A DNA stretch of 64,000 nucleotides from an uncultured virus (IMG/VR IMGVR_UViG_2061766007_000905) (IMGVR_UViG_2061766007_000905), one strand, 5' to 3'; positions 1 to 49,908 are shown, counted from the first letter of the stretch. The notes: generated from the letters alone by a model not told the origin. Translations and numbers: made by a program.

Positions 1-56
1 ATCTTTCGATAACGGATTAACAGTCCGCCCCCTGCTACCAACTCGGGTACACTAGA
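1..56 (-). tRNA. tRNA-Asn(GTT), 3' part outside window; Tyr-like D arm and long variable arm
   Basis: TCTAGTG TA CCC GAGTTGGTAGCA GGG G GCGGA CT GTT AA TCCGT TATCGAAAGAT. Confidence 0.8.
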
Positions 57-58
57 AT

Positions 59-97
59 AAAAAGAAATCCTGTAAGTTTCAAAGGTCTTACAGGATT
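59..97 (-). terminator. Attenuator terminator immediately 5' of tRNA-Asn
   Basis: AATCCTGTAAG-10nt-CTTACAGGATT then TCTTTTT. Confidence 0.85.
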
Positions 98-130
98 CAG
101 TTTAAAAATTCATCTAGTTATGAAACAAAA

Positions 131-196
131 CTAATCCTGTAGCACCTCAGGGTTATTATTAGGGTTGGTATTATTTGTGTTCATAACGAAAGTCAT
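131..196 (-). CDS. Asn-rich leader peptide MTFVMNTNNTNPNNNPEVLQD
   Basis: 21 aa, 7 Asn; 3' end TACAGGATT complementary to terminator 5' arm. Confidence 0.8.
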   Translation of the reverse strand: MTFVMNTNNTNPNNNPEVLQD

Positions 197-254
197 TTTT
201 ATTTTCTCACTGTTTTATTTATGTTTTTGTTTTTGTCTTTTTTGTTAAACTTTA

Positions 255-341
255 GGCGAGAAGTAATACTAAGGATTTGAACCTTATCCCTTCTTATCCG
301 AAGATAATACTAGGATAACCAAAATAGGAACTTCATATGCC
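255..341 (-). ncRNA. GTTCCTAT-helix ncRNA copy with UUCG hairpin and T-arm cargo
   Basis: GGC ATA TGAAGT TCCTAT ... TAAGG TTCAAAT CCTTA ... TT ACTTCT C GCC. Confidence 0.7.
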
Positions 342-348
342 AATTTAA

Positions 349-463
349 GCGGAAAGGCTGGACTCGAACCAACAACCCAAAGTTCCCCATTAATAGGAAC
401 AACCTTTGCGTGTAGCGGGTAGTAAAAATATTACTTTTGCTCTACCATTGAGCTACTTTCCGC
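349..463 (-). ncRNA. tRNA body whose anticodon loop is replaced by a permuted GTTCCTAT helix
   Basis: GCGGAAA/TTTCCGC acceptor, D and T arms; insert TTACTACCCGC TACAC GCAAAGGTTGTTCCTAT. Confidence 0.7.
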
Positions 464-474
464 ATGTAAATTTT

Positions 475-591
475 ATAGCGGGTAGTAACTTCTGGTAAGC
501 GTAACTGGACTCGAACCAACAACCTCCGACCATAAGGCCGACGCTCCGCCAATTGAGCTACACGCTTGGTGATAGGAACTACCTATGCTAT
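475..591 (-). ncRNA. GTTCCTAT-helix ncRNA enclosing a tRNA mimic with a shortened anticodon loop
   Basis: TAGC ATA GGTAGT TCCTAT [AAGCGTG...TACGCTT ACCA] TT ACTACC C GCTA. Confidence 0.75.
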
Positions 592-595
592 TTTA

Positions 596-671
596 TCTCC
601 CCTCTTGGATTTGAACCAAGGTTATTTCTGTTTGTAAGACAGATGCCATAAACCAGCTAGGCGAAGGAGAG
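596..671 (-). tRNA. tRNA-Val(TAC)
   Basis: cloverleaf, TCTGT CT TAC AA ACAGA. Confidence 0.85.
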
Positions 672-759
672 TTATGACCACTTTGTACAGTCATAGGTCG
701 TGGTCAATCCCTATGTAACGGCCTACTTTTTACTTCCCGTAGGCTGGCTTTTAAAAGTT

Positions 760-820
760 CGGCGGGAAGTAAACTTTGATAACCCATTCATCTTTATAAA
801 AATAGGAACTTCCTATGCCG
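760..820 (-). ncRNA. Minimal GTTCCTAT-helix ncRNA copy
   Basis: CGGC ATA GGAAGT TCCTAT ... TT ACTTCC C GCCG. Confidence 0.7.
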
Positions 821-931
821 TAAATTCAAAGAGGTGCGACTCTAATGGCTCCAGTCCGGAATGAAACCTGTTTAGCTAACCCAGATTTCAAACGATGTTC
901 GCCGAACATCTTCTCACCGTATTTCTTAACC

Positions 932-1002
932 CGCTGACGGAGGAATCGAACCCCGACTGCTTCATTTGCAACTTCCACAGCTTTTAAAGAAGAAGCGCCA
1001 GC
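932..1002 (-). pseudogene. Degenerate tRNA-like element
   Basis: GCTGGCG/CGTCAGC acceptor and GGGG TTCGATT CCTC T arm; no proper D arm. Confidence 0.4.
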
Positions 1003-1064
1003 TTATCGAACATAATAGAGTTTGCAACCACTATCATATCCTATCTTCACATCCCGGAAACTAG

Positions 1065-1111
1065 TAGCGGGTCCTGGACTCGAACCAGGGACTTCAAGGT
1101 TATGAGCCTTG
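1065..1111 (-). tRNA. tRNA-Met(CAT), initiator-like, 5' half in N gap
   Basis: CAAGG CT CAT AA CCTTG AAGTC CCTGG TTCGAGT CCAGG ACCCGCT A. Confidence 0.8.
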
Positions 1112-1278
1112 NNNNNNNNNNNNNNNNNNNNNNNNNNNNNNNNNNNNNNNNNNNNNNNNNNNNNNNNNNNNNNNNNNNNNTTTCTTGGAAACAAGTCGTC
1201 ATGTTCAATCCTTTCTAGTACGGCATGATATAAAGATGCAGGGAAACAAAACATCTATAAAAAGTTTGCGGTAGGCCA

Positions 1279-1351
1279 CAGGGTGTAGGCTAGTTGGTCA
1301 GTCACATGATTTGGGGTCATGGTCACGCAGGTTCGAATCCTGTCACCCTGA
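1279..1351 (+). tRNA. tRNA-Pro(TGG)
   Basis: CAGGGTG/CACCCTG, CATGA TT TGG GG TCATG. Confidence 0.9.
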
Positions 1352-1388
1352 TAGCAACCGAGCACACTACCAAATTTATAAATATGTT

Positions 1389-2042
1389 ATGGAAGAATAT
1401 ATTTGTAAATTTTGTAGGAAACCTTGTAAAAATTTGAATTCTTTACGTAATCATGAAAGACTATGTAAAAAGAATCCAAATAGACAAGAATCGTCATTTG
1501 TTAAATATAATGCAGAGCGTGAAACTGTATGGAATAAAGGTCTTACAAAAGAAACGGATGCAAGAGTTAAACAAATGGCAGAAACAATGAGTCGTGAAAT
1601 ACAAGCTGGTATAATTCATAATTATGACCATCAAAAAGTATGGACCGATGAATTACGTAAACGTCAATCTGAACAGAAAAAGGAATATTATAAAACACAT
1701 CCAGATAAACATCCAAATGTATTAGTTGCTGGAACTCTTGGAAAAATGACATATCCAGAAAAACTAACAGCCGAATATTTATCAGAACATAATATTGAGG
1801 CAAAACATAATTGGTATTTTAAAACAGATAAATTTACTAGATATATAGATTTTTACATTGAAAAATATAAATTGTTTATTGAAGTTGATGGCGAATATTG
1901 GCATAAAGATAAAGAAAAAGATATTAATAAAGATAAAGATGCATTAGCTAATGGTTATATCACATTAAGATTAAATCCAAAAACGGTTATAATACAATTA
2001 GAAGAATATTTTAAAAATATAAGTGCACAGGAGACACACTAG
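1389..2042 (+). CDS. Free-standing homing endonuclease, Zn-finger + Vsr/DUF559-like nuclease
   Basis: CxxC..HxxxC, WNKGLTKET, IDFYI..IEVDGEYWH; start moved to ATG 1389 after TATAAATA. Confidence 0.8.
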   Translation: MEEYICKFCRKPCKNLNSLRNHERLCKKNPNRQESSFVKYNAERETVWNKGLTKETDARVKQMAETMSREIQAGIIHNYDHQKVWTDELRKRQSEQKKEYYKTHPDKHPNVLVAGTLGKMTYPEKLTAEYLSEHNIEAKHNWYFKTDKFTRYIDFYIEKYKLFIEVDGEYWHKDKEKDINKDKDALANGYITLRLNPKTVIIQLEEYFKNISAQETH

Positions 2043-2104
2043 CTTCGGGAGCTAGAGAAGTTATATCCAGACGGAGGTCGGATAGATGGTGGAATTGTGA
2101 TAAT

Positions 2105-2177
2105 CAGAATGTAGCTCAGCTGGCAGAGCGCACCGTTCGGGGCGGTGAGGTCGGAGGATCATAACCTCTCATTCTGA
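2105..2177 (+). tRNA. tRNA-Pro(CGG), non-canonical T loop ATCATAA
   Basis: CAGAATG/CATTCTG, CACCG TT CGG GG CGGTG. Confidence 0.85.
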
Positions 2178-2185
2178 CGAAAAAT

Positions 2186-2241
2186 CGGCATAGGTCGTTC
2201 CTATTTAGCTCAAGTTAGAGCGTTTGATTGCTAATCAAAAG
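2186..2241 (+). ncRNA. GTTCCTAT-helix ncRNA copy with D arm and GCT anticodon arm, truncated by gap
   Basis: CGGC ATA GGTCGT TCCTAT TTA GCTC AAGTTA GAGC G TTTGA TT GCT AA TCAAA. Confidence 0.6.
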
Positions 2242-2251
2242 NNNNNNNNNN

Positions 2252-2383
2252 CAAAAGCTACTGTTACTGGAGGTCTTTGATTATACCAGCTCTTACTGTA
2301 ACTGATCTTACGTGTTACACCCGGTTTAGCACTATAAAGAGTCTGCAGCTTCTAAATAACGCCTAACAGTATTAGTTTTTTTC
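2252..2383 (-). ncRNA. Putative rod-like ncRNA with its own promoter
   Basis: promoter TTGACA-N17-TATATT at ~2391-2419 (-); nested stems TACTGTTA/TAACAGTA, CTCTT/AAGAG, TGTAAC/GTTACA. Confidence 0.4.
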
Positions 2384-2421
2384 GTTGACAAATATAATAA
2401 TTTTTATTCTATTTGTCAACC

Positions 2422-3078
2422 CTAATTATAAATCTTTTCACACACTTTATCTAACCAGTCATCCCCATATTTTTCAGTCATATAATTTATTTCTTTTGAA
2501 ACATCTTTAATGACTACTAGGTTATTTACTGATTGATATTTTGCTTGACATTTCTCATCTTCATAACCTTTAATTTCTATATAGTTACTACCGTCGAAAA
2601 AATCTGGCAAATATCTATGTGTTTTATTTTGGTATTCATAAAGAAATTCTTTAGTATTACGCTCTAGCTTATTACCGTTTTCTTTATTATAAAACCAATA
2701 TGCTACTTCCCAAGAACTATCAAAAAAGATTCCGTCTGCTATACATTTTTTACCATGACCAGATTTATGAATTCTATGACCACCTACATTTTTACCTTCA
2801 GCTTTAGCTTTATGTATTCCTTCAATTAGCTTCTGCTTATGTTCTTCAGTCATTGGACCATGCAAAACTCCTAATTTTGTTTTTGCTTGTTTTTCTGCTT
2901 GATTTTTAACAATATTAGATGTCTCTTTTGTTAATCCTTTATTCCAAGCAGTATGTCCAATTGTATGTGATACATAGTTTCTATCCGGATTATGCGGACA
3001 TAATCTTTCATGATTTCTATGTGAATTCGCATTTTTACAAGTTTTCTGACACCATTTACAAATATAACATATTTCCAT
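2422..3078 (-). CDS. Free-standing homing endonuclease, Zn-finger + PD-(D/E)XK nuclease
   Basis: same N-terminus as 1389 ORF; FDSSWE..YLPDF..IEIKGY. Confidence 0.8.
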   Translation of the reverse strand: MEICYICKWCQKTCKNANSHRNHERLCPHNPDRNYVSHTIGHTAWNKGLTKETSNIVKNQAEKQAKTKLGVLHGPMTEEHKQKLIEGIHKAKAEGKNVGGHRIHKSGHGKKCIADGIFFDSSWEVAYWFYNKENGNKLERNTKEFLYEYQNKTHRYLPDFFDGSNYIEIKGYEDEKCQAKYQSVNNLVVIKDVSKEINYMTEKYGDDWLDKVCEKIYN

Positions 3079-3121
3079 ATCATATTTATAATTTGGTAGA
3101 GCAGTTAACTTGATTTTTTAG

Positions 3122-3202
3122 AGCCGGAGAGAGGATTCGAACCTCCGTAGCTTGCGCGCTTGATTACAAATCAAGTCCTATTAACCACTCAGGCACTCCG
3201 GC
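3122..3202 (-). tRNA. tRNA-Thr(TGT) with extended variable region
   Basis: GCCGGAG/CTCCGGC, CTTGA TT TGT AA TCAAG CGCGCAAGCT. Confidence 0.85.
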
Positions 3203-3505
3203 AAAATGTAATTATGTTTGTCAAACTTAATTCGTTAGTTCATGTAAGCGATAGATCTTATAAATCGCATAATACACTCGCTAACAAATAATTCGCTTCA
3301 ATTACAAAGCGTTACGTTATTTCCGTACTTTCATAACCAGGTAACGAACCTCCTGCGCCCAAGTTTCATAGATTTCTCTATACACCGCGTTGGAACTCAT
3401 GTTTCCTTTTGGACAACTGGCGGAATATTTCCAGAGTTTTACTTTCGGAACAAGTAAGTAAGCAACTTGGAGGGTCACATTGCTATCGGCCCACAGGGTG
3501 ATTTC

Positions 3506-3579
3506 TCGGAGTAGCGAGATTCGGACTCACGGCCTCCTGATCCCAAATCAGGCGCTCCACCAGGCTGAGCTATACTCCG
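3506..3579 (-). tRNA. tRNA-Pro(TGG)
   Basis: CGGAGTA/TACTCCG, CCTGA TT TGG GA TCAGG. Confidence 0.9.
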
Positions 3580-3784
3580 CAAGTTTTTTAGGTGGTTCCG
3601 CCACCACTGGACTACCAGCATAACGTTTATTAAACTCAGCAAAGCAGTTAACGTTGTTCGCTATGTCTTTCGAATTTTAGCTACATTAACCGGTTGGCGC
3701 CACAAGTTTGGTGATCAACTCCAATGAGGGCACGTTGACGTTGGTGTTAACGCTTTGCTTATCTTGCAAGATAGAAATTTTTAG

Positions 3785-3897
3785 TAGGCCGGCGTCGGAT
3801 CGAACGACCCCTAGTTTCTCCACCTAAACTCCATGTTTTCTCGCGACCTAGCATGAAGGTTTGTTAGTGTTCTGTTACCCATTTGAACTATGGCCCA
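3785..3897 (-). ncRNA. tRNA-like RNA with ~55-nt insert replacing anticodon arm
   Basis: GGGCCA TA GTTC..GAAC D arm, GTCG TTCGATC CGAC T arm, CTTCATG/CATGGAG insert stem. Confidence 0.5.
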
Positions 3898-3905
3898 TAT
3901 TTTAG

Positions 3906-3988
3906 TCGCAGAGGATGGATTCGAACCATCGCGTGCTTTCGCATCGGGATTATGAGCCCCGTGACATCGTCCACTAGTCGACCCTGCA
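3906..3988 (-). tRNA. tRNA-Met(CAT) with long variable arm
   Basis: CGGGG CT CAT AA TCCCG A TGC GAAA GCA CGC GATGG TTCGAAT CCATC. Confidence 0.8.
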
Positions 3989-4017
3989 TCAAAATTTAAG
4001 ACTAATATAGTCTTTAG

Positions 4018-4332
4018 CTGTCCTTCCTGGACTCGAACCAGGGACCAAGCGATTCATACTACTATAACTTTCGTTACCAAGCATCCTCATGGGTGTTAAG
4101 CCCCCCACCGCACAAATTGGACACTCGTTTTGTAGTCCGGGCTTTGTCTTTACCATATTCTTTCGAACTTAGGTACTTCGTGTAAAGTCTCTACACACGG
4201 ATTATTTCTAATCCTTGCTCGGCGTTGCCATTTTACAGGTTTCACCGACTTAGCGAAGTTTGCATCTATACGTTTCCATACAGAGAATCTATTTTAAACA
4301 GTCGCTCGCTCTACCAACTGAGCTAAAGGACA
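4018..4332 (-). tRNA. tRNA-Asn(GTT) interrupted by an intron
   Basis: exons 4332-4297 and 4054-4018 join to AGCGA CT GTT AA TCGCT; TGTCCTT/AAGGACA acceptor. Confidence 0.9.
4055..4296 (-). mobile_element. Group I self-splicing intron (242 nt) after anticodon position 36
   Basis: 5' exon ends in U, intron ends in G; core-like segments GTCGGTGAAACC, GGCAACGCCGAGCAAG, GTAGAGACT, AAGACAAAGCCCG. Confidence 0.8.
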
Positions 4333-4344
4333 AAAAGGAGAATT

Positions 4345-4378
4345 AAAAAATCCTGTTGAGCTTGTCTCATACAGGATT
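4345..4378 (-). terminator. Attenuator terminator upstream of Asn/Met/Pro/Thr tRNA cluster
   Basis: AATCCTGT(A)TGAG acaag CTCA ACAGGATT TTTT. Confidence 0.8.
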
Positions 4379-4404
4379 CAAATGAAATCATGTAATGAAA
4401 CAAA

Positions 4405-4467
4405 CTAATCGAAAGTTACCTTTGGATTATTGACTGGTGTCATGTTTGTTGTTATTACTAATTGCAT
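4405..4467 (-). CDS. Leader peptide MQLVITTNMTPVNNPKVTFD
   Basis: RBS GAGGA; same layout as 131-196 leader (GAT TAG ttt gtttcat). Confidence 0.75.
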   Translation of the reverse strand: MQLVITTNMTPVNNPKVTFD

Positions 4468-4757
4468 TTTTATCCTCGTTTTATATTATATATAACGATA
4501 ATTTTTTAATTTTCGTTTTTTCGTTGATTTAAATATAGTAATTTATTTTTATTTTGTAAACCCTATTTTTAAAGTGATCTTGAAGGAATACCGATTCGTC
4601 ACCTTCATATAGACCCAGACTCTGGAAGGAATATCCAGACTCAACCCGTTACCACCGTGTCTATTTCATTTTATTGATCGTCTAGCAGACACTTTCTTTC
4701 AATCAACGTTATATAATATAGAATTTTTATTGTGTTTTGTAAACCCTAAAAATTTTT

Positions 4758-4988
4758 TTACTGAACATTAGTCAATTGAAGCGTAGTATCAGCTACCTGA
4801 AGATTTTCCGGCAAACGGACGACCAAGTTCTTTGAATAATCAACCGGAATCGGATTTGCCATATAGACATTAATTCCTTCAATCGTATTTACCTTTTTAA
4901 GTTCCTTATACGAAACCGTAGAATAGGTAACGCCGGCGATTGCAATGACAGAAGCGACCGCAAACGTAATCTTAAGATATTGCTTCAT
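4758..4988 (-). CDS. Small membrane-anchored hypothetical protein
   Basis: own promoter and RBS; N-terminal hydrophobic helix. Confidence 0.6.
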   Translation of the reverse strand: MKQYLKITFAVASVIAIAGVTYSTVSYKELKKVNTIEGINVYMANPIPVDYSKNLVVRLPENLQVADTTLQLTNVQ

Positions 4989-5097
4989 TTTGACTTCCTT
5001 TGTTTTATTTGTTTTAACGATGTTAATATAATAAATTATTCTCGTCTTGTAAACCCCTTAACTAATATAAATAATATATAAAATTTAAGGAGAAACT

Positions 5098-5406
5098 ATG
5101 AATTTAAAAGAAGCAAAAGAACAATTAGAGAAAAATGGCTATAAAATTCAAAAATTGAATGAATGTGGCAGCAGTGGTTGCGGCGGCGGAAGTGATGATT
5201 ATTCTACAGTATCAACCACAGCGCGTAAATCTCGATATAGCACATTAGAAAAACATCCATATTCCTTGCTTACCGCATTATGCAACATATATGATAAATT
5301 TGATGCATTATCAAATGATAACAAACACAAAGTGCTTAGAAAATGCTTGAATTTCTTAGATAATGATGATTTATTAGATTTTGAAAAATGGCTTAATACT
5401 CTTTAA
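5098..5406 (+). CDS. Late protein with putative capsid-targeting leader and CGSSGCG motif
   Basis: TATAAATA at 5066, AAGGAG RBS, MNLKEAKEQLEKNGY..LNE-CGSSGCGGGSDDY. Confidence 0.7.
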   Translation: MNLKEAKEQLEKNGYKIQKLNECGSSGCGGGSDDYSTVSTTARKSRYSTLEKHPYSLLTALCNIYDKFDALSNDNKHKVLRKCLNFLDNDDLLDFEKWLNTL

Positions 5407-5455
5407 ATTAAAAACTGGACTAAAAATCCAGTTTTTAAATTCTTTTAATTTCACA

Positions 5456-5653
5456 TTAACCACAACTACTATAATGGCCGCAATAATCTCTTACAACTCT
5501 GCCACAGCCAATATAGACAGTTCTCGGTTCTGAGCCGCAACCAGTATACATTGTTCTTCCGCAACCAATATAAACATAATCATCAGAAGAACCGCAAAGA
5601 TTAAATTGCGGGATTTGACTATGTTTCATTTTAATATTTTTCAATAAAATCAT
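5456..5653 (-). CDS. Cys-rich YxGCG-repeat peptide, putative RiPP precursor
   Basis: six CG motifs (YIGCG, YTGCG, YIGCG, DYCG, YSSCG, LCG); starts 2 nt after radical SAM stop. Confidence 0.7.
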   Translation of the reverse strand: MILLKNIKMKHSQIPQFNLCGSSDDYVYIGCGRTMYTGCGSEPRTVYIGCGRVVRDYCGHYSSCG

Positions 5654-5655
5654 TT

Positions 5656-6537
5656 TTATCCTTCAATATGATCTTCTAATTTTTCACCGTTCTTTTCAAG
5701 CAGCCATTTAATAAATTCTACATCATTTGCATATTCAGAAACATCATCGTCTAATATATATTCACCGAATACCCATCTTTCAAATTCACTGTCTTGAACG
5801 AAATCCCAATCATCATAAATCATTCCGTCAATAGTAATAAGAACATCATTTACATATCGTCTATTACCATACTTGACAAGAGAATGTTCTATTCCTCTAT
5901 GATAGCTAATTTTAAAGTCATCGTTATAAAATTGGTCATCGTTACAGACCATACAACCGCCAGAAACAGTGTAATCATATTTCATGATTAACTTTTCAAA
6001 TACTTCATCACGGTTCTTAAGATTGTCCTTAGTAATATTTCTATAATCAGCTCTAATACAGATATCAAGATTTTTCATACCTTTTAACGGCTGAATAAAT
6101 GCGTCAAATACATCTACATCAAAAGTTTCAGATAATACGACGTTCAATTTAATGAATTTCGTAATCTTCTTGAAATCTTCCATTGGCAAAATCGGTTCAT
6201 AAAATTTCTGGTGCATATGACGAGAGATATTGACACGCGCAATCTTGCTATTGTTTACGAAATCAATTCTTTTCTGAACATCGCCTTCCAATGGGAATGT
6301 AGTATTAACGAAGCATGGTTTCTCCATAGCATCGAGTAATATCTGACACTTTTCAATATCAGCTAACGGTTCACCGCCAGTTAATACAAATTCAGTGATT
6401 AATGGATTCTGATTAATCTTTTTAATCTGTGCTAGAATAGCATCCATATCACATGTTCTTTCTTTATACATGTGTTTGGATGTACAAAATTTACAATGGT
6501 TATGACAATCCCATGGAACAAAAATTGTGCAGCTAAG
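5656..6537 (-). CDS. Radical SAM enzyme (5' end in gap)
   Basis: in-frame extension LSCTIFVPWDCHNHCKFCTSK gives CxxxCxxC; FVLTGGEPL; extra CMVC. Confidence 0.9.
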   Translation of the reverse strand, partial: LSCTIFVPWDCHNHCKFCTSKHMYKERTCDMDAILAQIKKINQNPLITEFVLTGGEPLADIEKCQILLDAMEKPCFVNTTFPLEGDVQKRIDFVNNSKIARVNISRHMHQKFYEPILPMEDFKKITKFIKLNVVLSETFDVDVFDAFIQPLKGMKNLDICIRADYRNITKDNLKNRDEVFEKLIMKYDYTVSGGCMVCNDDQFYNDDFKISYHRGIEHSLVKYGNRRYVNDVLITIDGMIYDDWDFVQDSEFERWVFGEYILDDDVSEYANDVEFIKWLLEKNGEKLEDHIEG

Positions 6538-6586
6538 NNNNNNNNNNAAGACTGGTTGGATTCCAGTTGGATCCTTAAGAAATCAT

Positions 6587-6659
6587 GGTTCTATCGTCTA
6601 GAGGCCCAGGACAGTCGGTTCTCAGCCGTCTTACTTCAGTTCGAATCTGAATAGAACTA
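6587..6659 (+). tRNA. tRNA-Glu(CTC)
   Basis: GGTTCTA/TAGAACT, GTCGG TT CTC AG CCGTC. Confidence 0.85.
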
Positions 6660-6683
6660 CTATTCCATTAAAGGAAGTATTAT

Positions 6684-7010
6684 ATGATAACAGTGACACA
6701 AATCAACGATTTAAGAAAAGAAACCCAGGTAAGTATGCTTCTCTGTAAGCAAGCTCTTGAAGCAACAGGCGGTGATTTTGATGCAGCAAAAAAGTGGCTT
6801 CGTGAACAAGGTAAAGAAGTTACTGGTGATTCATCAGTTTTTGGTTATACCGTAATTGAGAATGCAATAGTATCAAATCAAGGTTCAGATAATAAATTTA
6901 TCTATTCTGACGGACATACATGTATAGATATTCGTGGATTTGGCGGTTTTTCTCCATATACTGTTTGGGGAAATACAAATACTCAGCTGATTTTAAATCC
7001 GGTAAAATAA
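6684..7010 (+). CDS. EF-Ts N-terminal (UBA-like) domain protein
   Basis: INDLRKETQVSMLLCKQALEATGGDFDAAKKWLREQG resembles EF-Ts N-terminus. Confidence 0.8.
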   Translation: MITVTQINDLRKETQVSMLLCKQALEATGGDFDAAKKWLREQGKEVTGDSSVFGYTVIENAIVSNQGSDNKFIYSDGHTCIDIRGFGGFSPYTVWGNTNTQLILNPVK

Positions 7011-7061
7011 TAAAAAGGATTGACTGATGTCAATCCTTATTTAATATATGCTTTATAATTA

Positions 7062-7508
7062 TTATAGAGCTTCTACATCATTAGTAACCATTTCGCGAAT
7101 ACGACGCAAAGAACCTTCTTCGTCATCTTCGTCATAAAATTCAAGTCCAGTTTCGCCAGAATATTCTATCAATGGATTTTCAATAAGAGTAATCAATTCT
7201 TTAACATATGGTGTATCGGCAATATCTATCTTTCCGATTTCTTTAAAATGTTTAGCTGTACTATCGTCTACTTCTATTACACCGCAAAACCAAATATCAT
7301 CTGGGCCAGCTTCAAACCAATCGGTTATCGCATTAATAATATCTTGTTTATTTTGTGATACTGCATAAATATATGCTGTTTCCGGGTTATTATGCGCACG
7401 GTCGCCATAAATGCTATAACATACGAAATTACGGTTTCCGGCTGCATCTTCTTTAATTAGCTTATAGCCAGCTGATTTAAGAGTTTTTAAAGCTTCAGTT
7501 AGATTCAT
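7062..7508 (-). CDS. Late protein with putative capsid-targeting leader
   Basis: TATAAATA at 7533-7540; MNLTEALKTLKSAGYKLIKE. Confidence 0.65.
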   Translation of the reverse strand: MNLTEALKTLKSAGYKLIKEDAAGNRNFVCYSIYGDRAHNNPETAYIYAVSQNKQDIINAITDWFEAGPDDIWFCGVIEVDDSTAKHFKEIGKIDIADTPYVKELITLIENPLIEYSGETGLEFYDEDDEEGSLRRIREMVTNDVEAL

Positions 7509-7629
7509 TTAATATTCTCCTTATATTTTATATATTTATAAAAATCATTTATATCAAATAAAAAATTTATTTTAGGGGTTTACAAAAGGAAAAAACTTTA
7601 CTATATTTAACAACGTTAAAACACAAGAG

Positions 7630-7749
7630 AACAGCAAAAGCGGTTCCTATCATTAATAGAGTAGCTTAATAGGTAGAGCAACCACTAGTTAATGTGGGAG
7701 GTTATTGGTTCGACTCCAATTTCTATTGCCATTATTACTGCTCGCTGTT
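7630..7749 (+). ncRNA. GTTCCTAT-helix ncRNA enclosing tRNA mimic (8-nt anticodon loop, encoded CCA)
   Basis: AACAGC AAA AGCGGT TCCTAT [AATAGAG..TTCTATT GCCA] TT ACTGCT C GCTGTT. Confidence 0.75.
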
Positions 7750-7803
7750 TATTTTGCGAAAAACAGGAAAATTAAAACATATATAATATAAAGGTTAAGA
7801 AAA

Positions 7804-7851
7804 ATGACTAAGTTTGTAGTTGACACTCATGATTGCAAGACTCGCCGCGAC
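7804..7851 (+). CDS. Leader peptide MTKFVVDTHDCKTRRD (variant copy, truncated by gap)
   Basis: identical to 23866 leader. Confidence 0.65.
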
Positions 7852-7884
7852 NNNNNNNNNNGCTTCTACCTTTAATAAATCTCA

Positions 7885-8178
7885 TTAATTTGCTTCCTTA
7901 CCAAATTCTTTTAAAATCTCATTTAATGTGTTCTGAAAAGCCAATTCACGACCTGGTTCCGGTTTTTTACCGAATATAGCTTCATAATCATGGAATGCTC
8001 CACAATCAGGATCATAATTGGTATCTTCTTCAAGAGTAAACTTATAACCCTGGTTTCCAAGACGTTGTACTAGCTTAGCATAAGCTTTTGACATTTTAGA
8101 CAGATTAGTCCCACAATAAATTGTGCAATTTGCATCAAAATGATTTTTTACTGCAATATAATAATGACGTATATTCAT
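7885..8178 (-). CDS. Hypothetical protein, related to 36397 ORF
   Basis: shared EDxNYDPDCG motif. Confidence 0.6.
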   Translation of the reverse strand: MNIRHYYIAVKNHFDANCTIYCGTNLSKMSKAYAKLVQRLGNQGYKFTLEEDTNYDPDCGAFHDYEAIFGKKPEPGRELAFQNTLNEILKEFGKEAN

Positions 8179-20115: not shown

Positions 20116-20188
20116 GCTCGCATCGGCCAATGGTTTAAGCCAACCGACTTTCTATCGGTTAATTCCAGTTCGACTCTGGATGCGAGTA
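20116..20188 (+). tRNA. tRNA-Glu(TTC)
   Basis: ACCGA CT TTC TA TCGGT. Confidence 0.85.
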
Positions 20189-20442: not shown

Positions 20443-20568
20443 AAAACTGATAACGCATTTTGTTCGGTGGTAGAACAGGCGGTGTGAAGGCCGCTGGTCA
20501 CAGGTTCGAATCCTGTATGCGCTTACTGAAAGTCAATAGTACGCGTTGAGATGAGTAAGGTCAGTTTT
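20443..20568 (+). ncRNA. Composite RNA: tRNA-like domain plus 3' hairpin in a closing helix
   Basis: AAAACTGA..TCAGTTTT encloses cloverleaf with non-7-nt loop (TGTGAAGG) and CTTACT/AGTAAG stem. Confidence 0.55.
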
Positions 20569-23701: not shown

Positions 23702-23812
23702 TAGCAATAGCAGTTCCTATGAATCAGTGGAATAGCTTAACTGGATAAAGCGTTTACCGTAAGGTAAAAGATTATCGGTTCGAGTCCGGTTCCCATTTCT
23801 TACTGCCCGCTA
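23702..23812 (+). ncRNA. GTTCCTAT-helix ncRNA enclosing tRNA mimic with GNRA-capped anticodon arm
   Basis: TAGC AAT AGCAGT TCCTAT..TTTACC GTAA GGTAAA..ATCGG TTCGAGT CCGGT..TT ACTGCC C GCTA. Confidence 0.75.
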
Positions 23813-23865: not shown

Positions 23866-23939
23866 ATGACTAAGTTTGTAGTTGACACTCATGATTGCAA
23901 GACTCGCCGCGACNNNNNNNNNNATCATCTAGTTTTTAA
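23866..23939 (+). CDS. Leader peptide MTKFVVDTHDCKTRRD.. (gap inside; end uncertain)
   Basis: AAAGGA RBS; followed by terminator and tRNA-Asp. Confidence 0.7.
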
Positions 23940-23957: not shown

Positions 23958-23988
23958 GATTCCTGTGCAACTCACAGGAATCTTTTTT
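23958..23988 (+). terminator. Attenuator terminator 5 nt before tRNA-Asp
   Basis: GATTCCTGTG caact CACAGGAATC TTTTTT. Confidence 0.85.
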
Positions 23989-24979: not shown

Positions 24980-25063
24980 TCGACATAGACACAGGGTCAT
25001 TTAGTATTAACTATATAAAGAGTTTATAAAAATGATTCCTGTGTAAAAACAGGAATCTTTTTT
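24980..25063 (+). promoter_or_regulatory. Variant Asp attenuator (leader 3' end, antiterminator, terminator)
   Basis: GAC ATA GAC ACA GGG TCA; ACACAGGGTCAT can pair ATGATTCCTGTGT; GATTCCTGT/ACAGGAATC T6. Confidence 0.75.
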
Positions 25064-25142: not shown

Positions 25143-25201
25143 AATAGCATATGAAGTTCCTATTTTTGGACTGCAAATCTAGTATTTTACTTCTCGCTAT
25201 T
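25143..25201 (+). ncRNA. GTTCCTAT-helix ncRNA presenting an isolated Cys(GCA) anticodon stem-loop
   Basis: AATAGC ATA TGAAGT TCCTAT..TTGGA CT GCA AA TCTAG..TT ACTTCT C GCTATT. Confidence 0.7.
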
Positions 25202-37966: not shown

Positions 37967-38056
37967 GGGTTTACAAAAGAAAAATTATTTGCTATATTTA
38001 CAACGTAAAAACAAAAACACCAAAAAATTTTTTATATATAATAGAAAGGTTAAAAA

Positions 38057-38143
38057 ATGAAATTGCTTAGTTTGACACTCCTTCTACTCAGTAGCCTGCT
38101 CCTTAGCTGGTTATTGCGTCGTAGTCTAGTGGGAACTAAGTAG
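38057..38143 (+). CDS. Leu/Ser/Trp leader peptide MKLLSLTLLLLSSLLLSWLLRRSLVGTK
   Basis: AAAGGT RBS; 13 Leu using all six codons; Ser only AGT/AGC; GTGGGAACT antiterminator. Confidence 0.85.
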   Translation: MKLLSLTLLLLSSLLLSWLLRRSLVGTK

Positions 38144-38171
38144 TTCGATTGTTTAATCGTACGAGAGTTTA

Positions 38172-38205
38172 TAAGGTTCCCACAAGTTGGGAGCCTTAAT
38201 TTTTT
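38172..38205 (+). terminator. Attenuator terminator 4 nt before tRNA-Trp
   Basis: TAAGGTTCCCA caagt TGGGAGCCTTA A TTTTTT. Confidence 0.85.
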
Positions 38206-38209
38206 ATAT

Positions 38210-49831: not shown

Positions 49832-49908
49832 GCTGTATTAGTTCAGTTGGTTTTTAGAACGACTCCTTGCCATGGAGTAGGTCACCAGTTCGAGCCTGGT
49901 ATACAGCT
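49832..49908 (+). tRNA. tRNA-Gly(GCC)
   Basis: ACTCC TT GCC AT GGAGT. Confidence 0.9.

Follow-up and report, generated by a model that had tools for sequence, protein, structure and literature searches.

The 64,000-nucleotide (nt) stretch of DNA IMGVR_UViG_2061766007_000905 from IMG/VR, hereafter the window, belongs to an uncultured large phage and carries at its left end, on the minus strand, a short Asn-rich leader directly in front of a transfer RNA (tRNA) gene for asparagine. Judged from the sequence, this Asn leader element appears to be a ribosome-mediated (leader-peptide) transcription attenuator of the trp/his type that gates a block of phage tRNA genes, a reading to which a probability of about three in four is assigned. 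The phage would then probably make its Asn, Pro and Thr tRNAs solely when those codons are read slowly. An attenuator had already been proposed at this position in a first-pass annotation of the same DNA, and the proposal is now supported by the Thr and Pro tRNAs found downstream, by the conservation of the open reading frame (ORF), by the helices recovered with RNAalifold and by four further codon-matched leader classes. Every structural feature of such attenuators that was testable appears to be present in the Asn element, and the sequence anatomy, the conservation, the matching of codons and isotypes and the alternative pairings are directly observed.

Window coordinates are used throughout, and the Asn leader element, lying on the minus strand, is read 5′ to 3′ from high to low positions. 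The flank to the left of the window was read from the viral contig L001, which is near-identical overall and identical across the Asn leader region (offset 2935). The element is composed of the following parts.

210..206, minus strand: Shine-Dalgarno (SD)-like GTGAG in an A-rich spacer, 9 nt 5′ of the leader ATG, the putative ribosome-binding site.
196..131, minus strand: leader ORF MTFVMNTNNTNPNNNPEVLQD, 21 codons followed by TAG at 133..131.
181..149, minus strand: regulatory codon run N6-P16, 11 consecutive codons with seven Asn (AAC/AAT), two Thr (ACA, ACC) and two Pro (CCT).
187..174, minus strand: region 1, GTTATGAACACAAA, codons 4-8, the 5′ strand of the long-range helix P1.
155..148, minus strand: region 1′, TAACCCTG, 5′ strand of the local hairpin in which region 2 is sequestered; its sequence resembles the terminator 5′ arm.
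141..128, minus strand: region 2, TACAGGATT-AG-TTT (= TACAGGATTAGTTT), spanning the stop codon, with region 1′ and region 3 as alternative partners.
129..117, minus strand: 3′ strand of P1, TTTGTTTCATAAC, 13 nt, directly 3′ of the stop codon.
103..87, minus strand: region 3, AAACTG followed by AATCCTGTAAG, the terminator 5′ arm and also the antiterminator partner.
86..77, minus strand: terminator loop of 10 nt between AATCCTGTAAG and CTTACAGGATT.
76..66, minus strand: region 4, CTTACAGGATT, the terminator 3′ arm; the whole hairpin occupies 97..66.
65..56, minus strand: U tract TCTTTTTATT, the final T of which is base 1 of the tRNA.
56..1, minus strand: 5′ part of tRNA-Asn(GTT), called by ARAGORN on the identical L001, with anticodon loop CTGTTAA; the gene continues past the window edge.

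The first-pass annotation had described an Asn-rich leader with seven Asn in a run of ten codons, a 9-bp complement between its last codons and the 5′ arm of a terminator, and a U tract ending 2 nt before tRNA-Asn(GTT), and each of these statements is borne out. Residues 6-15 of the ORF at 196..131 read NTNNTNPNNN, with seven Asn; the last leader codons TACAGGATT (141..133) are complementary at every position to AATCCTGTA (97..89) in the 5′ arm of the hairpin; the hairpin at 97..66 is followed by TCTTTTTATT; and the TTTTT run within this tract (63..59) stops 2 nt before the tRNA, because tRNA-Asn starts at position 56 on L001. The terminator at 97..66 was absent from a simple terminator scan with a loop range of 3-8 nt, the loop here being 10 nt long.

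The composition of the leader sets it apart within the window. Three of the 1443 ORFs of at least 10 amino acids, counted in six frames, contain at least seven identical residues in ten codons, and two of the three (196..131 and MKLLSLTLLLLSSLLLSWLLRRSLVGTK at 38057-38143) sit directly 5′ of cognate tRNA arrays. The third, at 7705-7791, has a TTG start and overlaps a tRNA gene, and was taken as a chance occurrence. In combined Asn, Thr and Pro content the Asn leader ranks first among 1073 ORFs of at least 15 amino acids (0.60 versus 0.146 in the long ORFs of the window; binomial 3.7e-6), followed at rank 2 (0.47) by a sister leader at 4467..4405, and in the same ORF set the Leu ORF at 38057-38143 ranks first in combined Leu, Ser and Trp content. 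The sequence TACAGGATT is found five times in the window against an expectation of 0.65, a count reached by none of 100 shuffles.

The tRNA genes lying 3′ of the leader on the same strand, as called by ARAGORN on L001, are in this order Asn(GTT), Asn(GTT), Pro(TGG), Pro(CGG), Pro(TGG), Pro(CGG), Thr(AGT) and Arg(CCG). The first-pass annotation had suggested inspecting the tRNAs to the left of the window for Thr and Pro anticodons; four Pro tRNAs and Thr(AGT) are indeed seen there, and the Asn, Pro and Thr of the block are the amino acids of the N/T/P run of the leader. The tRNA-Asn(GTT) at the first gated position matches annotated tRNA-Asn of phiKZ-like phages. Both tRNA-Asn(GTT) genes behind the leader (window 1-56, minus strand; L001 2813-2991) measure 85-86 nt and include a long variable arm, an uncommon form for tRNA-Asn. 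Over the 5′ half they share 90-96% identity with the tRNA-Asn annotated in phiKZ-like Pseudomonas phages, and in the relative L017 ordinary Asn tRNAs of 75-77 nt stand behind the same Asn leader.

Further upstream in the same operon lies a second element of this kind, the sister attenuator (type 1).

4560..4340, minus strand: sister attenuator, heading the operon, with a promoter-like TTTACA-17-TATATT at 4560..4532 and SD sequence GAGGA.
4467..4405, minus strand: sister leader ORF MQLVITTNMTPVNNPKVTFD, with Asn/Thr/Pro codons; its terminator arms are at 4379..4371 and 4356..4348.

This sister looks like a paralogue of the Asn leader element at 196..131, and its antiterminator strand is placed just 3′ of its stop codon, not in the last codons. 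The Asn operon of the window thus appears to hold two attenuators in series, its apparent order being the promoter at 4560..4532, leader 1 with its terminator, an interrupted Asn tRNA, Met/Pro/Thr tRNAs, Val and odd tRNAs, leader 2 (196..131) with its terminator, and finally the Asn/Asn/Pro x4/Thr block. A promoter-like site (GGGGTTTACA...TATATT) belonging to the Asn leader itself, together with a motif in the 5′ untranslated region (5′-UTR), is seen in some relatives; in the window and several relatives, upstream tRNAs replace the promoter part and the transcribed spacer is kept. The interrupted gene is a tRNA-Asn(GTT) at 4018-4332 on the minus strand, the anticodon loop of which is split by ~242 nt (4296..4055), the gene of the relatives being intact. 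The insert gives a group I intron match below threshold (26.8 bits versus 50), and a contig from the RNA library of a variant strain joins 4054 to 4297, as expected equally of spliced RNA or of an intron-less strain, the two being indistinguishable.

Relatives of the leader were sought with three anchors that are independent of the ORF, namely a tRNA-Asn pattern, a hairpin pattern and a metagenome pattern running from the stop codon to the hairpin. The leader is present in six of the ten loci retrieved with the tRNA-Asn pattern, and the hairpin pattern returned 11 loci, L018 among them. The 45 loci of the metagenome pattern comprise 16 of type 2 (the Asn leader, with PEVLQD), eight of type 1 (the sister, with PKVTFD) and 21 unrelated chance matches; tRNA-Asn(GTT) lies within ~100 nt at 14 of the 16 type-2 metagenome loci, and the other two end at a contig edge. 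The Asn leader (type 2) is thereby represented by 13 distinct DNA versions and six peptide versions (MTFVMNTNNTNPNNNPEVLQD; MTYVMNTNNTNPNNNPEVLQD; MTFTMNTNTVNPNNPEVLQD; MTFTMNTNTNPNNNPEVLQD; (MIM)LFMNTTTNPTNNNPEVLQD; (MIM)TFVMNTNTNPNNNPEVLQD), and the sister leader by eight distinct versions.

The leader is conserved as an ORF and bears the signs of coding constraint, with frame-keeping indels and synonymous changes. Among the 13 aligned type-2 sequences the length of the ORF changes by one whole codon only, and indels of 1-3 nt are found after the stop and in the terminator loop, which varies freely in sequence and length among the relatives. Synonymous variation affects AAC/AAT, ACC/ACG, CCT/CCG/CCA, GAG/GAA and GTG/GTT/GTA, and amino-acid replacements in the run are confined to N/T/P, with the lone exception of MTFTMNTNTVNPNNPEVLQD, which has a Val; where the leader has four Thr codons, the array behind it has two Thr tRNAs. 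The leader ORFs of the relatives are neither broken nor out of frame and are preceded, 6-9 nt 5′ of the start, by an SD-like GAGAG or GAGGA. Both the C-terminal PEVLQD and the U tract 3′ of the hairpin are found in 13/13 versions.

These data make it extremely unlikely that the leader is a chance Asn-rich frame in an AT-rich spacer beside a hairpin. Frames rich in AAT and AAC are not rare a priori in a window of 35% G+C, but the ORF ranks, the shuffles, the whole-codon indels, the intact ORFs of the relatives and the family-wide match of leaders to arrays (see below) all run counter to this explanation. A conserved gene for a small phage peptide, with an ordinary terminator behind it to divide two tRNA sub-operons and without any switch, would account for the invariance of the PEVLQD tail and for locus L018, where the same hairpin serves as a plain terminator after a tRNA. 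It is nevertheless very unlikely, given that the variable part of the peptide is nearly all N/T/P (one Val, in one version), that the peptides of the other classes are of similarly low complexity and follow their own arrays, that the codons of the invariant tail also supply RNA strands to the local hairpin and the antiterminator, and that a tRNA block placed behind a constitutive terminator, with no promoter in between, would be silent.

The alternative RNA pairings that the attenuator reading implies were evaluated on a 13-row alignment of the distinct type-2 sequences. The long-range helix P1 is formed by 187..174 with 129..117, and its 13 pairs comprise six that are invariant, two that are compensatory (CG 7 / UA 6 and UA 9 / GC 2) and five that depart only by unpaired cells. 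In total, 86.6% of the P1 cells are paired, versus 34-45% in controls with a slid partner, and the covariation score of P1 and the terminator (24 pairs) is reached by none of 500 shuffles. Unguided RNAalifold recovers P1, the terminator and the local hairpin. The last of these is a helix of 7 bp between TAA.CCTG (155..148, the last Asn and Pro codons, TAACCCTG) and CAGG.ATTA (139..132, CAGGATTA), and its region 1′ is invariant in 13/13 rows; these pairings imply that region 1′ is similar to region 3, and likewise region 2 to region 4, the pattern known from classical attenuators. The antiterminator is longer than 9 bp, since TACAGGATT+AGTTT can pair with AAACT(G)AATCCTGTA over 14 bp (9+5) with the stop codon in the middle of the helix, and in the relatives this extension is maintained through differing sequences (AAACTG, AAACG and AAATT).

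The calculated energies are -13.2 kcal/mol for the terminator (11-bp stem), -13.0 kcal/mol for the antiterminator, -8.6 kcal/mol for P1 and -4.4 kcal/mol for the local hairpin. P1, the local hairpin and the terminator together amount to -26.7 kcal/mol and form the minimum free energy (MFE) structure of the full-length free RNA. The effect of a ribosome was simulated by masking, that is, by folding at equilibrium only the RNA 3′ of the ribosome. The antiterminator is obtained with the A site at codons 1-13, and the terminator with the A site anywhere from codon 14 up to the stop. In this simulation the same three states are seen for the sister leader at 4467..4405.

These structures suggest the following course of events. 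Transcription would proceed from right to left, in the window probably as read-through from the operon promoter at 4560..4532 past the upstream tRNAs. On ribosome-free RNA, P1 and the local hairpin would form, followed by the terminator at 97..66 with its U tract, and RNA polymerase would halt at base 1 of tRNA-Asn. Under unhindered translation the ribosome at TAG would cover region 2, because the stop codon lies in the middle of that region, and termination would again be expected. A ribosome stalled in the N/T/P run for Asn-, Thr- or Pro-tRNA would instead hold P1 and the local hairpin open and leave region 2 free to pair, in the 14-bp helix, with the emerging terminator 5′ arm; the terminator would be blocked and the Asn-Asn-Pro-Pro-Pro-Pro-Thr block would be transcribed. 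As the tRNA in short supply is at once what is sensed and what is produced, the loop would work as a negative-feedback controller of tRNA supply. The trigger is conjectured to be host tRNA depletion or a mismatch in codon usage.

The same anatomy might be given a different role, in which translation of the ORF determines how the tRNA precursor is processed or how stable it is (through RNase access, for instance) and the hairpin is a processing or stability element. The element does lie inside a multi-tRNA transcript that requires processing, and the free RNA of the sister Leu locus is strongly structured (z = -6.5). This role is distinctly unlikely in view of the U tract, which follows the hairpin in all 13 versions and ends at base 1 of the next tRNA, and of the strand complementary to the 5′ arm, which spans the stop codon in all five leader classes; from these two features the geometry is that of termination control.

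The attenuator design proposed for the Asn element is found again in the Leu/Ser/Trp locus of the window.

37970-38208, plus strand: Leu/Ser/Trp attenuator, with a promoter-like TTTACA-17-TATATT at 37970-37998 and AAAGG before the ATG.
38057-38143, plus strand: Leu/Ser/Trp leader ORF MKLLSLTLLLLSSLLLSWLLRRSLVGTK, with region 2 (GTGGGAAC) at 38129-38136.
38172-38198, plus strand: terminator of 11 bp, then ATTTTTTATA up to tRNA-Trp.

The last codons of this leader, GTGGGAAC, are complementary to the terminator arm GTTCCCAC, and the fold of the locus has the z value of -6.5 given above. Its Leu codons are all six Leu codons, accompanied by one Trp codon and five Ser codons that are solely AGY, and the array behind it consists of Trp (CCA), four Leu (TAA, GAG, CAA, TAG) and Ser (GCT) tRNAs.

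A 5′-UTR motif common to several leaders, TTTTTATATATAAT, which might conceivably act as a second promoter, was scanned in viral contigs and found at 80 distinct sites, 23 of them with a same-strand tRNA within 400 nt. At 23/23 of these tRNA-linked sites an ORF starts 12-20 nt after the motif, one of the ORFs being cut to 8 codons; the remaining 57 sites belong to unrelated AT-rich viruses, save one locus of insufficient length. Five leader classes are distinguished.

EAF: Glu/Ala/Phe(/Val).
DKGH: Asp/Lys/Gly/His(/Arg).
YCS: Tyr/Cys/Ser/Ile/Met.
NTP: Asn/Thr/Pro.
LSW: Leu/Ser/Trp.

In a 5 x 5 matrix of leaders against arrays, the true assignment scores highest among the 120 permutations both at the amino-acid level (3.02; next 2.29, mean 1.05) and at the codon level (2.75; next 2.03). 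The Ser codons of the LSW leaders are AGY (5/5 and 7/8), with Ser(GCT) seen solely in the array of the window and no Ser tRNA at L089, and those of the YCS leaders are TCN (7/7 and 4/4), with arrays containing Ser(GGA) or Ser(TGA) at L048 and L057 and none seen at L094. In all five classes the ORF end or the stop region is complementary to the terminator 5′ arm over 7-9 contiguous pairs (5 for one shortened arm call), and between two LSW versions regions 2, 3 and 4 change jointly (GTGGGAAC/GTTCCCAC versus GTAGGGAC/GTTCCTAC).

Several leaders of the window are partly masked by runs of N. Leaders of the Asp/Lys/Gly/His type (MTKFVVDTHDCKTRRD...) are seen in part at 7786-7851 and 23866-23932 on the plus strand, and GATTCCTGTG-type terminators stand before tRNA-Asp at 23958-23982 and 25034-25057. 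The copy at 7786 has no array behind it, and two leaders of this type are located behind a promoter and one odd tRNA. No leader was seen at the array at 20116 (Glu/Ala) and none is readable at the array at 49832, where in both cases a 10-N mask just upstream could hide one.

The correspondence between leaders and arrays also bears on what the switch responds to. In the masking simulation any stall within codons 1-13 leads to the antiterminator, and excerpts of the literature describe drug-sensing leader attenuators of a similar general kind, so the same attenuator might be a general sensor of slowed translation (antibiotics, host shut-off or defence-induced arrest) in which codon choice carries little weight. 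Such a sensor is unlikely, for it leaves unexplained that each of five classes draws its amino acids and codons from its own array, and that AGY is used before Ser(GCT) and TCN before Ser(GGA/TGA).

Returning to codon-specific attenuation, the balance of evidence leans towards large phages possessing a modular controller of tRNA supply, in which each isotype-sorted block has its own codon-matched leader-peptide attenuator, sometimes two in series in one operon, and is transcribed only while ribosomes await those tRNAs. If true, this would be the first ribosome-mediated attenuation in which the sensed tRNA is itself the product, the ribosome gauging the supply of a tRNA and the output being that same tRNA. 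How large phages escape the constitutive synthesis of all their dozens of tRNAs would be explained, and the sequence-readable rule that leader composition equals array content would predict which tRNAs a phage treats as limiting in its host. The long-debated reason for the carriage of tRNA genes by phages would become directly testable, because the leaders show which codons are monitored, and synthetic biology would gain compact, orthogonal, codon-specific sensors. In addition, the leader system may serve as an internal detector of the loss of host tRNAs, such as anticodon nucleases cause, or of a codon-usage mismatch between phage and host.

A number of observations weigh against the attenuator reading of the Asn element and are set against the evidence above. 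The 11 pairs of the terminator and the 9-bp complement are paired in all 13 rows and never vary in the Asn class, and therefore provide no covariation, an invariance that is partly imposed by the search pattern in the metagenome rows. Covariation in favour of these two helices is confined to other classes, as in the joint change of regions 2, 3 and 4 between two LSW leaders. Terminator and antiterminator are nearly isoenergetic, and the free RNA from the ATG onward has the antiterminator, not the terminator, as its MFE structure; the outcome must therefore be kinetic. For most other leader classes the same equilibrium simulation gave mixed or no switching, and no support is taken from it. The complement between ORF end and arm is no more than moderately rare, being reached by 24-138 of 2000 shuffles per class, and by 962 of 2000 for the shortened arm, and a cross-class matrix of ORF ends versus terminator arms does not discriminate between the classes because the arms share TTCCTGT. 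In the window, the Asn leader has no promoter of its own and its SD-like GTGAG is weak, and eight of the 20 residues after Met1 are non-cognate. The Arg(CCG) tRNA of the array is without a matching codon in the leader, and both CCT codons require U34 wobble by Pro(TGG). Four of the ten loci found with the tRNA-Asn pattern (L004, L007, L008 and L011) carry a very similar tRNA-Asn without the leader, to which the plain terminator of L018 is to be added.

The RNA evidence, which consists of contigs from four metatranscriptome runs compared with positions 1..4700 of the window, belongs with these reservations: RNA-library contigs cover 65-566, 133-558 and 137-300, but their ends, strand and level are unreadable and DNA carry-over is possible. 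One RNA-library contig stops at 65, and another continues there into a variant flank. That the ORF is translated, that transcription ends at the hairpin, that the switch operates and what physiologically triggers it are points that we infer from sequence features.

The window contains 40 tRNA genes, a terminase and HNH-like endonucleases among the tRNAs, at a G+C content of ~35%; related contigs measure 410-424 kb, and the DNA of the window is present in bovine and sheep gut metagenome runs. The nearest relatives of its TerL among 50,697 phage records are the terminases of T4-like cyanophages (~36% identity). A blastn search of positions 1..1000 against the same records gave a match limited to the tRNA-Asn part, with no cultured relative carrying the leader, and the Leu attenuator gave no match among the phage records. 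A tRNA-like gene of 114 nt at 349-462 (minus strand) scores 48 bits with the Rfam tRNA model, and odd tRNAs to which ARAGORN assigns 2- or 4-base anticodons are found among the genes at 493-567 (minus strand), 7655-7731, 20452-20524 and 23726-23799 (plus strand). The motif TACTACCCGCT / TACTGCCCGCT is repeated just 3′ of some of the odd tRNA genes. The near-palindrome ATAGGAACTNCNTATG has five copies (324-339, 572-587, 802-817, 2189-2204 and 25148-25163) versus 0.04 expected, most of them near a tRNA gene, candidate roles being a processing signal or an endonuclease target. A 1.1-kb insert at 1112-2251, with a plus-strand tRNA-Pro, an HNH-like ORF (1311-2042) and runs of N at both borders, is missing from L001 and from the contigs of three RNA-library runs, where 1111 adjoins 2252, and has the look of a mobile homing-endonuclease cassette within the array.

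The known targets of leader-peptide attenuation are genes for the synthesis or charging of amino acids, and the leader-peptide attenuators of enterobacterial amino-acid operons include trpL, hisL, pheL and leuL as well as the multivalent thrL and ilv leaders. The phage element shares with them an SD-led short ORF containing a regulatory codon run, a stop codon placed so that the terminating ribosome can mask region 2, the alternative pairings 1:2, 2:3 and 3:4, and an intrinsic terminator directly 5′ of the regulated genes; as in the thr and ilv leaders, one leader would sense several amino acids. Excerpts of two papers give the general description of leader-peptide transcription attenuators (PMC1183508, PMC3082878). 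Unlike the enterobacterial leaders, the phage element would regulate tRNA genes and not genes of biosynthesis, transport or synthetases, so that the sensed species is the product; it is phage-encoded and modular, with one leader per isotype-sorted tRNA block, and is located here inside an operon behind other tRNAs. The Rfam family Thr_leader (RF00506) scores 21.3 bits on 221 nt (E = 0.053), below its gathering threshold of 55, which indicates no sequence homology to the enterobacterial leaders; no other leader family is listed for this segment, and on positions 1..8000 of the window Rfam gives tRNA matches only, no family reaching threshold on the leader element.

In the attenuation of pheST through the pheM leader, a leader peptide reportedly senses one charged tRNA and controls an aminoacyl-tRNA synthetase. 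The phage element resembles it in that a leader peptide would gauge the supply of charged tRNA and what is controlled belongs to the translation machinery, not to a biosynthetic pathway, and differs from it in that the product there is a synthetase, a single amino acid is sensed and the gene is cellular, whereas here the product is tRNA and the gene belongs to a phage. The T-box riboswitch, which binds uncharged tRNA directly and has no ORF, is likewise a terminator/antiterminator leader that answers tRNA status; the T-box model finds no match at E <= 10 in 40..260, nor at E <= 1 in 1..8000.

In its biology the phage block comes close to the trn operon of Anabaena, where, according to excerpts of two papers, an accessory tRNA block is silent and becomes induced under translational stress, with homing-endonuclease genes among the tRNAs (PMC8421152, PMC10272220). 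Both would keep an accessory tRNA block off until translational stress, and both have homing-endonuclease genes between their tRNAs. They differ in their control, which for the Anabaena operon is ascribed, in the excerpted text, to the transcriptional repressor TrcR (PMC10272220); the terms 'attenuat' and 'leader' have 0 occurrences each in the 2021 paper on that operon (PMC8421152). A full-text literature search, with subscription-only journals outside it, returned in the portions of the sources it covered no account of leader-peptide attenuation of tRNA genes. Relative to the known attenuators, the novelty lies in the regulated genes, which are tRNA genes, and the type of mechanism is itself that of the textbook.

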